Source: an uncultured bacterium
Lineage (GTDB): Bacteria; Planctomycetota; Phycisphaerae; Phycisphaerales; SM1A02
Assembly: GCA_903911205.1 (NCBI GenBank)
Contig: CAIWCL010000123.1
Coordinates: forward strand, 10,819 to 74,818
Length of the DNA stretch: 64,000 bases
Direction: 5' to 3'
Position numbers and translations under genes: made by a program. Of the stretch, positions 3,727-51,739 are shown piece after piece; the first letter of the stretch is position 1, and each line of letters starts with the position of its first letter. Below the pieces are notes generated by a model, which was not told the origin of the DNA, searched no databases, and saw only the letters and a program-made list of their open reading frames with translations.

Positions 3727-4875
3727 TCAGTCGAGCCGCCGTCCGGGCCACGGACCAGCGAAGAATTGCGCATCACGTTCGTCGATGTGGAAGGTGACCC
3801 GTGCGTTGATCGGCAATTCCTGCGCGTGTGCGCGGGGGACCCGTGCCCGAAGCGTTCGGCCGTCGGCTCGAAGTGCGATCAAGTCAACGAAAAGTCCGGC
3901 GGGCTCGCGCGCGAGCAATTTCGCGTCGAGTTCGATCGAGGGCTCACGTGGTGTGCCAACGCGAATTTGCCACGGCCGCAGACCGACGAGCGTTGGAGTT
4001 TCGACGCGCGCCCGCGCGCGACGTTCGGTGAGTTCGCGCGCAAGCCCCGGCGAAATCCGGGCATCGGCGCACGTGCCATCCGCCGAAATCTCAATCACGT
4101 GCATGCCGAGGTCATCCACGAGCTGCGCCGTTTCAAGATCGGGTGGCCGATCAGCGATTTCGCCCGCGGGGCCGAACGCACGGACTTCGCCTCGCAGCAG
4201 GACAAGCATGTCATCCGCAATCGCGAGCGCATCGGTCGGATCGTGTGTGACGACGATGGTTGTTGCGCCGATCGAGCGTTGCAACTCTCGCACCATCTGC
4301 CGAACGGTGAAGCGATTCGCACGGTCGAGATTCGCAAAGGGCTCATCGAGCAAGACGAGTTGGGGCGAGCGGATGAAGACCCGCGCGATCGCAACGCGCC
4401 GACGCTCGCCAGCCGAAAGTGCCGCGGGGCGGCGATCTCGAAGATGCGCGATGCCAAGCGATCGGAGCAGGCTCGTCACACGATCGCGTCGACGATCCGC
4501 GGGCTCGCCGCGGGGTAGCGCCGCGCTCTCGATGTTCATGGCGACGGAGAGATGCTCGTGCAGGGCCGCGTCATCGAAGCTCATGCCAACCGCACGTTCG
4601 CACGGCGAGAGATTGGCCCAATCTGTACCGCTGAACGCGATGGTTCCGCGCTGAGGCCGCTCGAAACCTGCAAGCAACGACAGAAGCGTGCTTTTGCCGG
4701 CACCCGAAGGTCCGACGATCGCGACCAACCGACCGCGTGGGACTTCGAACGAAACGTCCTGCAGGACTGGAGCGGCGCCCGAACCCTTTCCGCGGGAGAA
4801 TGAGACGCCGCGCACGGAGAGCCCGGGCACGGTCGTATCGGGCGAGCCCGACAAGGCGGCGCCCGACGCAGGCAT
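3727..4875 (-). CDS. ABC transporter ATP-binding protein, MalK/MsiK-like with a C-terminal regulatory extension; no permease gene is adjacent
   Basis: Walker A GPSGAGKST, signature LSAGERRRV, Walker B LVLLDEP, H-loop VTHD, plus about 130 extra C-terminal residues. Its start ATG shares one base with the prfB stop (TGATG at 4873..4877). Confidence 0.85.
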   Translation of the reverse strand: MPASGAALSGSPDTTVPGLSVRGVSFSRGKGSGAAPVLQDVSFEVPRGRLVAIVGPSGAGKSTLLSLLAGFERPQRGTIAFSGTDWANLSPCERAVGMSFDDAALHEHLSVAMNIESAALPRGEPADRRRDRVTSLLRSLGIAHLRDRRPAALSAGERRRVAIARVFIRSPQLVLLDEPFANLDRANRFTVRQMVRELQRSIGATTIVVTHDPTDALAIADDMLVLLRGEVRAFGPAGEIADRPPDLETAQLVDDLGMHVIEISADGTCADARISPGLARELTERRARARVETPTLVGLRPWQIRVGTPREPSIELDAKLLAREPAGLFVDLIALRADGRTLRARVPRAHAQELPINARVTFHIDERDAQFFAGPWPGRRLD

Positions 4876-5982
4876 CAGCCGCGCTCCGCGCGTCGGCGCT
4901 TCAATTCTGCGTCGATGAAGTCCGCGATGTGTCCGTCGAGGACATGCTGCGGATTTCCCGTTTCATGGCCGGTGCGATGGTCCTTCACGCGATTGTCATA
5001 GAAGACATACGAGCGAATTTGGTTCCCCCAATCGCGCGAAACCTTGCCGCCCGTGGCAGCAGTGAGCTCCGCCGCGCGTCGCTCTTCTTCCAATTGTTCG
5101 AGTTTCGCCTGAAGCACGGCGAGTGCCTGTGCCTTGTTCTGTGGCTGATCGCGATAGGTACTCGCAACAACCTGAATACCAGTTGGAAGGTGTGTCACGC
5201 GAATTGCAGACGCAACCTTGTTGACATTCTGCCCACCAGGACCAGACGCGCGCACGAACGCGACGATTTCGAGATCCTTGTCGGGAATCACCAGATCGCC
5301 GTGCTCAAACTCCGGCGTCACATCAACGGTCGCGAAACTCGTCTGGCGCTTCCCTTCGGCGTTGAACGGTGACACGCGCGCAAGGCGATGTGTGCCGCGC
5401 TCGCAGTTCATATAGCCGTAGGCGAACGGACCAACGATGCGATAGGAGACTTCCGAAATACCCGCTTCAGGCCCAAGCGAACGCGAGATTTCCTCGAGTT
5501 TCCAGCCCATCTCCTGGAAGTAGTAGAGGTACATGCGCTCGAGCATGCCCGCCCAATCTTCCGCTTCGGTCCCGCCTGCACCGGCTTGGATGGCAACGAA
5601 GCAGTTGCGGTGGTCGTGCTTCCCGGAGAGCAGCGACTGCTGCTCGATCTTGTCCATCTTGGACTGGAGGCCGAAGAGTGTCTCGTCGACCTCGGCAAGC
5701 ATGTCGGCATCGCCGGCTTCTTTCGCCAGTTCGTAGCCGACCGTCGCGTCGCCAAGGAGGCGAATCGCGTCTTCGAGCGGTTCCACCTGCGCGCGGATGA
5801 TCTTGCTCTCGGCAATGATCTTCTGCGCTTGCTTTGGGTCGTTCCAAAATTCTTGAGCGTTCATGCGGTCGTCGTACGCCGCGCGCTCTTTGAGTTTTTG
5901 ATCGTAGTTAAAGAGAGTCGCGGAGCGTCAAAATCCGCGCCTCAAGCTCGTTGATCACCGGTTGGTGAGCGTCATAGTGCAT
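4875..5982 (-). CDS. prfB: peptide chain release factor 2, expressed through a programmed +1 ribosomal frameshift
   Basis: The main ORF (4875..5864 in the track) has SPFNAEGKRQTSF and the GGQ motif (ASGPGGQNVNKV). It lacks the first ~45 residues of RF2. A 24-codon ORF0 starts at ATG 5982..5980 (MHYDAHQPVINELEARILTLRDSL) and ends at TAA 5910..5908. Shifting +1 on CTT T AAC continues as NYDQKLKERAAYDDRMNAQEFWNDP, in frame with the main ORF. This is colinear with E. coli LRGYL*DYDAKKERLEEV...DVWNEP. Confidence 0.9.
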
Positions 5983-6046
5983 AGGGGCGGAGAGTGTAGC
6001 GGGGGAAACCCGCTCCGTGCGTGCCGCGTTCCATTACATTTCCCGC

Positions 6047-7294
6047 ATGATGACTGCTGACGCTGTGCATCCGATGTTTGTCTCTTCGCGCATCGCCTCG
6101 ATGGCAGAAAGCGCCACGCTTGCCGTTGGTGCCAAGGCCGCGGCGGCCCGCGCGAAAGGCCACGATGTGATCGCGTTCGCGATGGGCGAGCCTGACTTCG
6201 ACACGCCGGAGAACATCAAACGCGTTGCGATCGCTGCGCTTGAGAAGGGCATGACGAAGTATGCGCCGACGCCTGGAGACAAAGCAGCGCGCGAGGCGAT
6301 CGCCCGCAAACTCACGGTCGAAAACGGTGTTGCGACTTCGTTTGAACAAGTCACCGTAACGGTTGGCGCGAAGCACGCGATTTACATGGCGCTGCACGCG
6401 ATTGTCGAGCCAGGTCGTGGCGACGAAGTGTTGCTGCCGACGCCTGCGTGGGTGTCGTACAAGCCGCTCATTGAACTTGCGGGCGCGAAGTGCGTGGAAG
6501 TCGCGGGCACGGTCGCAAACGGCTTCCGCGTGACGCCTGAGGATCTCGCCGCTGCGATCACGCCACGCACGGTTGGGATCGTCTGGAACTCGCCCTCCAA
6601 CCCGTGCGGTACGGCGTATCCAGCAGACGAGATTCGTGCGCTCTGCGAGGTACTCGCGAAACACGAGAAGATCGCGGTGCTCTCCGACGAGATTTATGAA
6701 AAGTTGATCTATCCAGAAGTTGCGCCGGGGCTTTCACACTTTTCGCCAGGCTCACACCCCGCGCTCGCGGGCCGCACGATCACGATCAATGGCATGAGCA
6801 AGAGTTACGCGATGACCGGTTGGCGCATCGGCTACATGGCTGCGCCGAAGGCGATGGCGAAGGAACTCATCAAATTGCAGGGGCAAATGACGAACTCGAT
6901 CCCGAGTTTCTTCTACCCAGCGATCGTCGAGGCTCTTACGAACAGCGCAGTCGGTGTCGAGGCCATGCGCGTGAAATTCGCAGCGCGCGCCGCGCTGATC
7001 AAACGCGAACTCGATGCGATTCCCGGCTTCGTCACCGTTGCACCGAACGCCGCGTTCTACGCATTTCCCGATATTTCGGCCTACTTCGGCAAGACCACGC
7101 CTGCCGGTACTCGCATCACCAGTGCGCAAGCATTCGCCGACGCCCTCCTCGACGAAGCGCATGTCGCGGTCGTTCCCGGCGAAGATTTCGGTGCATGCGC
7201 CCGTGGGCACATCCGCTTCTCCTTTGCCTGCTCAGATGAGACGATCGTCAAGGGCCTCGCGCGTGTTCGTGCGTGGGTTCAGTCGCTTCGGTGA
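6047..7294 (+). CDS. class I/II pyridoxal-phosphate aminotransferase (aspartate/prephenate aminotransferase type)
   Basis: ATLAVGAKAAAARAKGHDVIAFAMGEPDFDTP, NSPSNPCGTAY and the PLP-lysine motif INGMSKSYAMTGWRIGY. The start was chosen at Met 11 of the 6017 ORF by alignment logic. Divergent from prfB. Confidence 0.9.
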   Translation: MMTADAVHPMFVSSRIASMAESATLAVGAKAAAARAKGHDVIAFAMGEPDFDTPENIKRVAIAALEKGMTKYAPTPGDKAAREAIARKLTVENGVATSFEQVTVTVGAKHAIYMALHAIVEPGRGDEVLLPTPAWVSYKPLIELAGAKCVEVAGTVANGFRVTPEDLAAAITPRTVGIVWNSPSNPCGTAYPADEIRALCEVLAKHEKIAVLSDEIYEKLIYPEVAPGLSHFSPGSHPALAGRTITINGMSKSYAMTGWRIGYMAAPKAMAKELIKLQGQMTNSIPSFFYPAIVEALTNSAVGVEAMRVKFAARAALIKRELDAIPGFVTVAPNAAFYAFPDISAYFGKTTPAGTRITSAQAFADALLDEAHVAVVPGEDFGACARGHIRFSFACSDETIVKGLARVRAWVQSLR

Positions 7295-50611: not shown

Positions 50612-51739
50612 TCACATCGCGGCCAGACGCTCGGCGAGATCTTTCGCTGCGAGCGCGTCGACGAGTGAGTCCAGTTCGCCTGCGAGCAACTTCGCGAGCG
50701 AGAACGACTGCTCGACTCGGTGGTCGACGGCGATACCTTCTTTGAAACGGTAGGTTCGGATTTTCTCCGCGCGGTCGCCGGATCCGATCATTGAACGGCG
50801 CTCTGCGCTGCGCTTCAAGTCGGCCTCGCGCTTGCGGAGTTCGAAGACGCGCGCGCGCAGCAGGCGCCACGCTTTCTCGCGATTTTGCCCCTGTGAGCGC
50901 GTCTCTTGCATGCGGACCTCAAGGCCAGTCGGCAGGTGAATCAGGTGCACCGCCGTCGCGACCTTGTTCACGTTTTGGCCGCCGGGACCTTGCGCGGTCG
51001 TGACCATCTCCTTGACCTCAGCCGGATCAAGTGCAGCGTCGACCTCTTCGGGTTCCGGCATGATGGCGACGGTCGCGGTCGAAGTATGGATGCGGCCCTG
51101 CGCCTCTGTGGCCGGGACGCGTTTCACCTGGTGGGTTCCGCCTTCAAACTGAAGGGCTGCGAAGGCGCCGTCGCCCTCGACAGTCGCAATCGCGTGCGTG
51201 AGTCCGCCAGCATCGCCGGGCTTCGTCTCAACGATTTCGACGCGCCACCCGCGGCGCGCGGCGTATGCGCGGTACATCTCGAAGACTTCACCCGCCCAGA
51301 GTGCGGCCTCGTCGCCGCCGACGCCCATGCGCACTTCGAGCATAAAACTCGCGATCGCAGCTTCTTCACCCGTGACCAGCGCCCGCACGATGCTCGCGGC
51401 GAGGTTGCGCGCGCGGGCCTCGAGTTCCGGGCGCTCGGCACGCGCCATGGACGCCATCTCCGCGTCTCCGGACGAAAGAAGTTCTTCAAGCCCGACGAGC
51501 TCGGTCGCGGTCCGTTCAAGCGCGGCAAGGGGCTCGAGGGTGCGGGCGAGAACTGCACGGCGACGGGAGAGCGCGCTTGACTTTCGGTGGTCGGCAGCGA
51601 TCGCGAGGTCTTCAAGTTGCGCTGCGATGCCGTCGTCTTCCGCACGTTGCTGCGACAACACGCGGCGCAGATTCTCCGGCAGGAGATCGGCGACGAGCGC
51701 TTCGATGCGTGGGTGTCGGTTGGCGGCGGACGTCATCAC
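50612..51739 (-). CDS. prfA: peptide chain release factor 1
   Basis: RVPATEAQGRIHTSTATVAIMPE (PxT tripeptide context) and GPGGQNVNKVATAVHLIHLPTG. The track start is GTG 51739; ATG at 51736 is the likely start. Confidence 0.95.
   Translation of the reverse strand: MMTSAANRHPRIEALVADLLPENLRRVLSQQRAEDDGIAAQLEDLAIAADHRKSSALSRRRAVLARTLEPLAALERTATELVGLEELLSSGDAEMASMARAERPELEARARNLAASIVRALVTGEEAAIASFMLEVRMGVGGDEAALWAGEVFEMYRAYAARRGWRVEIVETKPGDAGGLTHAIATVEGDGAFAALQFEGGTHQVKRVPATEAQGRIHTSTATVAIMPEPEEVDAALDPAEVKEMVTTAQGPGGQNVNKVATAVHLIHLPTGLEVRMQETRSQGQNREKAWRLLRARVFELRKREADLKRSAERRSMIGSGDRAEKIRTYRFKEGIAVDHRVEQSFSLAKLLAGELDSLVDALAAKDLAERLAAM

Follow-up and report, generated by a model that had tools for sequence, protein, structure and literature searches.

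What stimulates a +1 frameshift at a prfB site that has neither the usual UGA stop nor a Shine-Dalgarno (SD) sequence? Translational autoregulation by recoding has its textbook example in the prfB frameshift. In recent surveys its shift elements are described as almost universally conserved and TAA as poorly tolerated there, and the loss of the SD in SD-using phyla is treated as an open paradox. The question is raised by the prfB gene, encoding release factor 2 (RF2), found in a contiguous stretch of 64,000 nucleotides (the window) from the genome of an uncultured bacterium of the Phycisphaerales. The assembly comprises 3.87 Mb in 393 contigs, is 96.9 % complete and has a G+C content of 61.8 %; closely related genomes are MAGs from fresh water that carry the labels Phycisphaerales, Phycisphaerae or Planctomycetota.

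An RF2 gene with UAA at its shift site

The positions of the two release factor genes and of the elements around the shift site are collected in Table 1. If CTTT is read as one step, ORF0 (peptide MHYDAHQPVINELEARILTLRDSL) and the +1 frame yield an uninterrupted product of 368 aa (P0001) with no stop. This product scores 395.6 bits on the prfB model TIGR00020 (cutoff 370; residues 11-361 covered) and far lower on the RF1 models in the same type of profile search, and its domains are PCRF and RF-1. The prfB profile matched from model position 2 only with both frames joined. Residues 10 to 361 align with E. coli RF2 straight through the junction (LRDSL-NYD compared with LRGYL-DYD), the SPF motif of stop-codon recognition (...RVSPFNAEGKRQTSF...) and the catalytic GGQ motif (...SGPGGQNVN...) are both found, and the alignment with solved RF2 structures reaches E = 1e-81. 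The original prediction took the locus for a genuine prfB +1 frameshift site with UAA as its stop and the +1 junction exactly at the E. coli position. Profile, domains and alignment agree with this reading, the coordinates proved correct to the base, the alignment spans the junction, and TAA is read in the window and in relatives. The gene is a genuine RF2 prfB with a TAA-type, SD-less recoding cassette.

Table 1 Features of the prfB locus and the prfA gene in the window
Feature	Position	Strand	Description	Basis
prfB (RF2), whole gene	5982..4875	-	split at CGC GAC TCT CTT TAA C	
prfB ORF0	5908..5982	-	24 codons and in-frame TAA stop	peptide aligns to E. coli RF2 N-terminus; conserved across the order
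ORF0 start codon	5982..5980	-	ATG	
Shift cassette CTT TAA C	5907..5913	-	slippery CTT-T, UAA stop, then C	sequence
Slippery codon	5913..5911	-	CTT	
In-frame stop	5910..5908	-	TAA	
Base after the stop	5907	-	C	
prfB +1 frame	4875..5909	-	AAC (5909..5907) to TGA stop (4877..4875); 344 codons; SPF and GGQ motifs	translation, profiles, alignment
Hairpin core, 5' arm	5933..5939	-	CGCGGAT; alignment columns 23-29; 6 of 7 positions pair here	
Hairpin core, 3' arm	5919..5925	-	CTCCGCG; alignment columns 37-43; ends 5 nt upstream of CTT	
Outer helix, 5' side	5941..5943	-	GAG; pairs with CTC at 5917..5915	weaker evidence
Outer helix, 3' side	5915..5917	-	CTC; overlaps first two bases of E-site codon TCT (5916..5914)	
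prfA (RF1)	50612..51739	-	375 aa, intact; PAT and GGQ motifs	translation; 347.5 bits, below TIGR00019 cutoff of 423

Much of the cassette follows E. coli prfB (AGGGGG UAU CUU UGA C). Both genes have a short ORF0 of 24-25 codons with an in-frame stop, a CUU-U sequence for the slip by tRNA-Leu(GAG), a C after the stop, a +1 frame that takes over at the homologous residue, and N-terminal peptides that are homologous. The tRNA-Leu(GAG), which is the tRNA that E. coli uses at the prfB shift site, is encoded in the genome, and a tRNA search of the genome found no suppressor tRNA. Unlike E. coli, this gene has UAA in place of the RF2-specific UGA and no SD-like purine run 3 nt upstream. Its E-site codon is UCU instead of UAU and its first +1 codon AAC (Asn) instead of GAC (Asp), the latter being a product of the same G-to-A change that turns TGA into TAA. 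A cassette of this type is known biology in a new lineage. We infer from the sequence that +1 frameshifting takes place at CTT TAA C and is sensitive to release factors.

The identity of the stop matters for the feedback. An RF1 that is missing or altered would make UAA effectively RF2-specific; we rejected this explanation because the intact prfA gene encodes both the PAT and the GGQ motif, so that UAA can be read by both factors. (The prfA product falls under the cutoff of NF001859 as well as that of TIGR00019, RF1 being divergent in this lineage.) It had been argued that RF1 also reads UAA and that sensing of RF2 alone is thereby blunted, and this holds in principle, with an intact RF1 gene in the same window. 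TGA accounts for 72 % of the genome's stops, TAA for 17 % and TAG for 11 % (901 long ORFs with strong coding periodicity), and RF2 reads about 89 % of them. The regulatory consequence of UAA, namely that RF1 terminates at the site too, is plausible and probably modest.

To see whether TAA is conserved, as had been proposed, prfB loci of related genomes were aligned, and conservation was found in the genus and in large clades. TAA is present in each of the 21 same-genus genomes in which the shift site was read; families f2 and f6 have TAA and f3 has TGA. The 80 named MAG loci carry CTTTAAC or CTTTGAC in an otherwise nearly identical context. Among 76 distinct RF2 genes from Phycisphaerales-level relatives, 55 have TAA and 21 TGA. 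On a tree of the 76 distinct RF2 proteins five TGA/TAA changes suffice, three of them forced by well-supported branches, and the TAA-only clades hold 25 and 20 rows. The wider class sample adds TAA in families f4, f5, f104 and f9. Over 144 distinct Phycisphaerae sites the counts are TGAC 97, TAAC 46 and TGAG 1; CTTT and the last A of the stop are invariant, and the next base is C in 143 of the 144. The other planctomycete classes have TGA at 37 of 37 sampled sites. Since TAA is found independently in MAGs of many studies, it is neither chance nor assembly error. UAA is a derived G-to-A variant of an ancestral UGA, fixed in large clades of the order.

Prince, Lin and Feaga surveyed 12,751 genomes; of 8160 frameshifting prfB genes, 1.4 % had TAA and none had TAG. 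In their account TAA is scattered at random without fixation in clades, and they make the case that such sites are still RF2-sensitive (bioRxiv 10.1101/2024.09.24.614795). The site described here shares CTTTAA with theirs. Unlike theirs, its TAA is fixed in a whole genus and in clades of 20-25 distinct genes, and it recurs in at least three further Phycisphaerae lineages. Fixation at the level of clades disagrees with their generalisation, and TAA can be stably fixed in whole clades. This stable fixation in large clades is new here, TAA itself and the loss of the SD being already in the literature.

The missing SD and an upstream hairpin

The 9 nt that precede CTT (CGCGACTCT) hold no SD-like element, as had been noted at the outset. 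For the stretch from 16 to 2 nt upstream of CTT, the predicted duplex with the 16S tail GAUCACCUCCUUU is worth about -0.1 kcal/mol, a value taken from the identical 15-nt stretch in a relative (L117). Planctomycete sites that retain GGGGG reach -8.6 kcal/mol with the anti-SD. The assembly itself is without a 16S gene; the anti-SD was taken from a same-genus genome (G007) and four other relatives, all of which have the canonical 16S 3' end ...GGATCACCTCCTTT.

The lack of an SD at this site does not reflect a lineage with weak SD usage, as the original prediction had supposed: compared with internal codons, candidate starts are enriched 2 to 4.7 fold in the cores GGAG, GAGG and AGGA at -13..-9, and the same-genus genome has a canonical 16S tail. 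Planctomycetota are indeed listed among the high-SD users, and the loss of the SD at the prfB shift site in most of them, despite high genome-wide SD use, has been called 'particularly puzzling' and a paradox for future work (PMC10798248). The present gene resembles the SD-less prfB genes of Planctomycetota, Firmicutes_A/B and Cyanobacteria discussed there, in which the SD was lost in an SD-using phylum with a normal anti-SD. That study, on Flavobacterium johnsoniae prfB (RNA 2024), mentions no hairpin; unlike its account of an unsolved paradox with no RNA structure, a covarying hairpin occupies the SD position here.

An SD-like sequence is retained in family f32 of another planctomycete class (loci L124, L145, L147, L153 and L157), with CGG GGG CGT CTT TGA C. 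Its GGGGG run is predicted to pair with an upstream CCUC/CUCCG stretch at -11 to -19 kcal/mol, and by this modelling the f32 'SD' may be masked or may serve at once as SD and as one arm of a hairpin.

In Phycisphaerae the sequence upstream of CTT is conserved far beyond what the protein needs, as GAG GCG CGG AT-N7-ATC CGC GAC TCT CTT TRA C, in families whose RF2 proteins are 50-65 % identical, and the two halves of the motif CGCGGAT-N7-ATCCGCG are complementary. The window's version has six core pairs and a T-C mismatch at the loop end, and its predicted fold shows exactly the core stem and the GAG/CTC outer pairs; compared with shuffled versions, its 69 nt fold only slightly better (z = -1.75). 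Counted from the P-site codon, the 3' arm takes up -12..-6 and the SD of E. coli prfB -9..-4, so the two places overlap. Rfam had no match in 5750..6100.

To follow the hairpin through the class, 160 short stretches spanning prfB 5' ends were taken from samples of 300 genomes of the phylum and 200 of the class, and an alignment of 144 distinct Phycisphaerae sites needed no gaps (alignment A1; the window coordinate is 5962 minus the alignment column). In the structure scored, columns 19-21 pair with 45-47 and columns 23-29 with 37-43. We found 83.5 % of cells paired, compared with 31-39 % in six slid controls. The observed covariation score was reached by none of 500 shuffles, a type of statistic that related sequences inflate.

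Pair 24-42 is GC at 74 sites, CG at 50, AU at 3, UA at 3, GU at 1 and unpaired at 13, and pair 27-39 is GC at 101, GU at 12, AU at 7, CG at 5 and unpaired at 17. The switches at pair 24-42 set the third position of an Ala, Ser or Thr codon against that of an Arg codon (GCG/CGC, GCC/CGG, GCA/CGT, AAT/CGA), while others set the third position of the Arg codons CGG, CGA or CGC against the first or third position of the Ile, Met or Leu codons ATC, ATT, ATG or CTG. Where the rare Arg codons CGT and CGA occur, the paired column carries the complementary A or T 6 times out of 7. Pair 24-42 switches within the single GTDB families f104, f9, f101, f7 and f3, and pair 27-39 within f1, f102, f8, f110, f9, f101, f108 and f106; because the switches recur inside single families, common descent cannot explain them. 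By our reading of the alignment they would represent at least a dozen independent double changes.

Six or seven of the 7 core pairs are kept at 129 of the 144 sites. The stem is present in 120 of 144 single-sequence MFE folds, with a median stem energy of -10.9 kcal/mol. In the comparison that covered planctomycete sites more widely, the hairpin energy was better at the site (-8.7 kcal/mol) than at a downstream control position (-4.8 kcal/mol on average). RNAalifold predicts the hairpin on A1 with RIBOSUM scoring and returns no consensus structure on the 144 rows with default scoring. A covariance model of the motif (R1) has one strong match in the genome, at prfB (69.9 bits), and matches 9 of 9 sampled Phycisphaerae relatives, each time coinciding with or adjoining the RF2 match. 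On this comparative evidence the predicted hairpin exists, covaries through repeated compensatory changes that fall at synonymous codon positions, and is maintained by selection across the class Phycisphaerae. It is what is new at this TAA-type, SD-less site and had no place in the original prediction. The only other R1 match in the genome, at G000:C47:295-348 (-) (locus L280), scores 24.9 bits with E about 0.01 and is probably chance.

The outer pairs are retained mainly in the order Phycisphaerales, in about half to three quarters of rows. Families f100 and f107 have other arrangements, respectively a GAGCGTC/GACGCTC stem shifted 5' and the weak SD AAGGAC. At the f100 loci L244-L249 there is no common stem in A1 columns 22-39; instead, a perfect GAGCGTC-TCAC-GACGCTC hairpin ends 9 nt before CTT, and a GGAGGCCC run lies about 33 nt upstream. 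Judged by sequence, the predicted f100 hairpin is a structurally different solution at this position of the gene.

We had expected a stronger hairpin where the SD is weak across the phylum and rejected this expectation: over 146 planctomycete sites hairpin strength did not rise with SD weakness (Spearman 0.06), and sites retaining GGGGG fold too. Outside Phycisphaerae the evidence for a positionally equivalent hairpin is weak, site and control energies looking similar by eye among the rows listed, and the hairpin claim is therefore limited to Phycisphaerae.

Candidate role of the hairpin in the shift

The original prediction asked what stimulates the shift, and the covarying hairpin immediately upstream is a concrete candidate. 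In the mechanism we propose, a ribosome at CUU-UAA would face two outcomes: a release factor terminates, or the peptidyl-tRNA-Leu(GAG) slips from CUU to UUU, whereupon decoding would resume at AAC and give full-length RF2. RF2 would still read UAA and the feedback would persist, RF1 being able to terminate there too. The G+C-rich mRNA hairpin of 6-7 bp would take the place of the absent duplex between SD and anti-SD, with three further possible pairs that reach the E-site codon. On a paused ribosome it would re-form on the side where the mRNA exits and, like the SD duplex, would pull the mRNA or destabilise the E-site tRNA, favouring the +1 slip. The scheme assumes that the whole stem can form while the ribosome pauses, -6..-12 lying inside the usual ribosome footprint.

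Precedent comes from engineered RNAs. In an E. coli 70S system, Huang et al. placed a synthetic hairpin beside the E-site codon of CUUUGA and obtained about 60 % of the +1 stimulation given by the SD, only with RF2 absent or limiting and less with weaker stems (PMC6321510). Like these 'refolding' hairpins, which mimic the SD duplex, the structure described here is a stable stem directly 5' of the shift site, here supported by covariation. The synthetic hairpins are 12 bp long and were assayed in E. coli extracts; the natural predicted stem has 6-7 bp, three optional pairs and a 5-nt spacer. Its median energy is to be read against the active 12-bp H1, a weakened version of which performed poorly (PMC6321510).

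A natural parallel is found in Cyanobacteria, where a 2026 screen reported a conserved hairpin just 5' of the CUU UGA of prfB, the 'pausing structure' K02836_upstream.h1_1, with one covarying pair (PMC12873609). Both structures stand immediately 5' of the CUU stop motif in a phylum with SD-less sites. They differ in phylum and in covariation, the cyanobacterial one having a single covarying pair and ours two with many independent switches, the comparison being with its published description.

Members of the class that have lost the frameshift bear on function. In five Phycisphaerae prfB genes without it, 4, 5, 6, 4 and 4 of the 7 core pairs remain, with stem energies, in the same order, of -0.8, -1.4, -7.2, +6.2 and +3.3 kcal/mol. 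The stem is thus largely decayed in four of the five, the exception being locus L185 with 6 of 7 pairs. Such decay is as expected if the stem is maintained for the shift, in a small sample that represents perhaps two or three loss events.

Taken together, we slightly favour the whole picture of an autoregulated +1 frameshift RF2 gene in which UAA is derived and a hairpin has replaced the SD as stimulator. Judging from the sequence comparison and from the analogy with synthetic hairpins, action as a +1 stimulator is the most likely role of the hairpin, and we would put it at about an even chance. More tentatively, and with somewhat less than even confidence, we suggest that a class-wide hairpin replaced the SD duplex in Phycisphaerae and that its outer pairs invade the E-site codon and eject the E-site tRNA.

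One alternative explanation is that no dedicated stimulator is needed. CUU-U and a poorly terminated UAA-C would give a sufficient low basal +1 shift, and the hairpin would be real but do something else: it might slow or space the ribosomes that translate the 72-nt ORF0, tune initiation on an mRNA with a short leader, or affect the stability of the mRNA. In F. johnsoniae about 7 % shifting occurs at prfB with no use of its SD, and an SD-less site does equally well (PMC10798248), hairpin strength and SD strength show no anticorrelation, L185 retains most of the stem with no frameshift to serve, and the authors of the cyanobacterial screen speak only of a 'pausing structure' (PMC12873609). We nevertheless consider it rather unlikely, as the 3' edge of the stem sits at the E. 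coli SD position, the stem has largely decayed in most class members having lost the shift (4 of 5), and synthetic hairpins at such a position do stimulate +1 shifting (PMC6321510).

Alternatively, there may be no functional RNA structure at all, the conservation reflecting the peptide LEARI-TIRDSL together with lineage-specific codon preference in G+C-rich genomes. The region does encode a conserved RF2 helix, G+C-rich coding sequence folds readily, as the mean of the control positions illustrates, and RNAalifold came back empty under default scoring. A peptide with a codon preference accounts poorly for CGT and CGA meeting their A or T partners, for GC, CG, AU and UA replacing one another repeatedly within families, or for the fall in pairing once the arms are slid, and we hold this explanation to be improbable. 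In a last alternative, ORF0 would be unused, or TAA would be a pseudogene lesion or an artefact of assembly, and RF2 would begin at the internal Met (5864); an ATG-initiated ORF of 329 aa is indeed present in the +1 frame. This is very improbable, given that well over 100 independent assemblies have TAA or TGA at this very position, that ORF0 aligns to the RF2 N-terminus and that the prfB profile matches from its position 2 only when the frames are joined.

The hairpin offers a sequence-defined candidate, supported by covariation, for the stimulator that is missing at these sites. If this role is true, and true also of the cyanobacterial structure, 'SD-less' prfB sites would not be stimulator-less and the paradox stated in PMC10798248 would be resolved. 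We further hypothesize that the hairpin may have allowed UGA to drift to UAA at this site, so that the RF2 feedback would have come to sense the capacity of RF1 and RF2 together.

The E-site codon itself is uneven in its distribution. Although the background is G+C-rich, 109 of the 144 sites have TCT (A1 columns 46-48); TGG is the codon in families f8, f9 and f113. The shift may be influenced by a particular E-site codon or tRNA.

Surroundings of the gene

A TACACT box lies at 5993..5998 (-), within GCTACACT, 10 nt upstream of the ATG of ORF0. The bases that flank it vary, whereas the box itself is kept throughout the genus and in much of the family. No SD precedes this ATG, and a divergent aminotransferase-like ORF starts at 6017 (+), about 35 nt away. 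A scan for consensus promoters and terminators found none in 5850..6150. The position and conservation of the box suggest that TACACT is a -10 element and that the prfB mRNA would have a very short leader or none. At the other end of the gene, the TGA stop of prfB (4877..4875) overlaps the ATG (4875..4873) of a 382-aa ORF (3727..4875, -) with the ABC-type Walker A motif GPSGAGKST, and this TGATG arrangement suggests translational coupling of the two genes.
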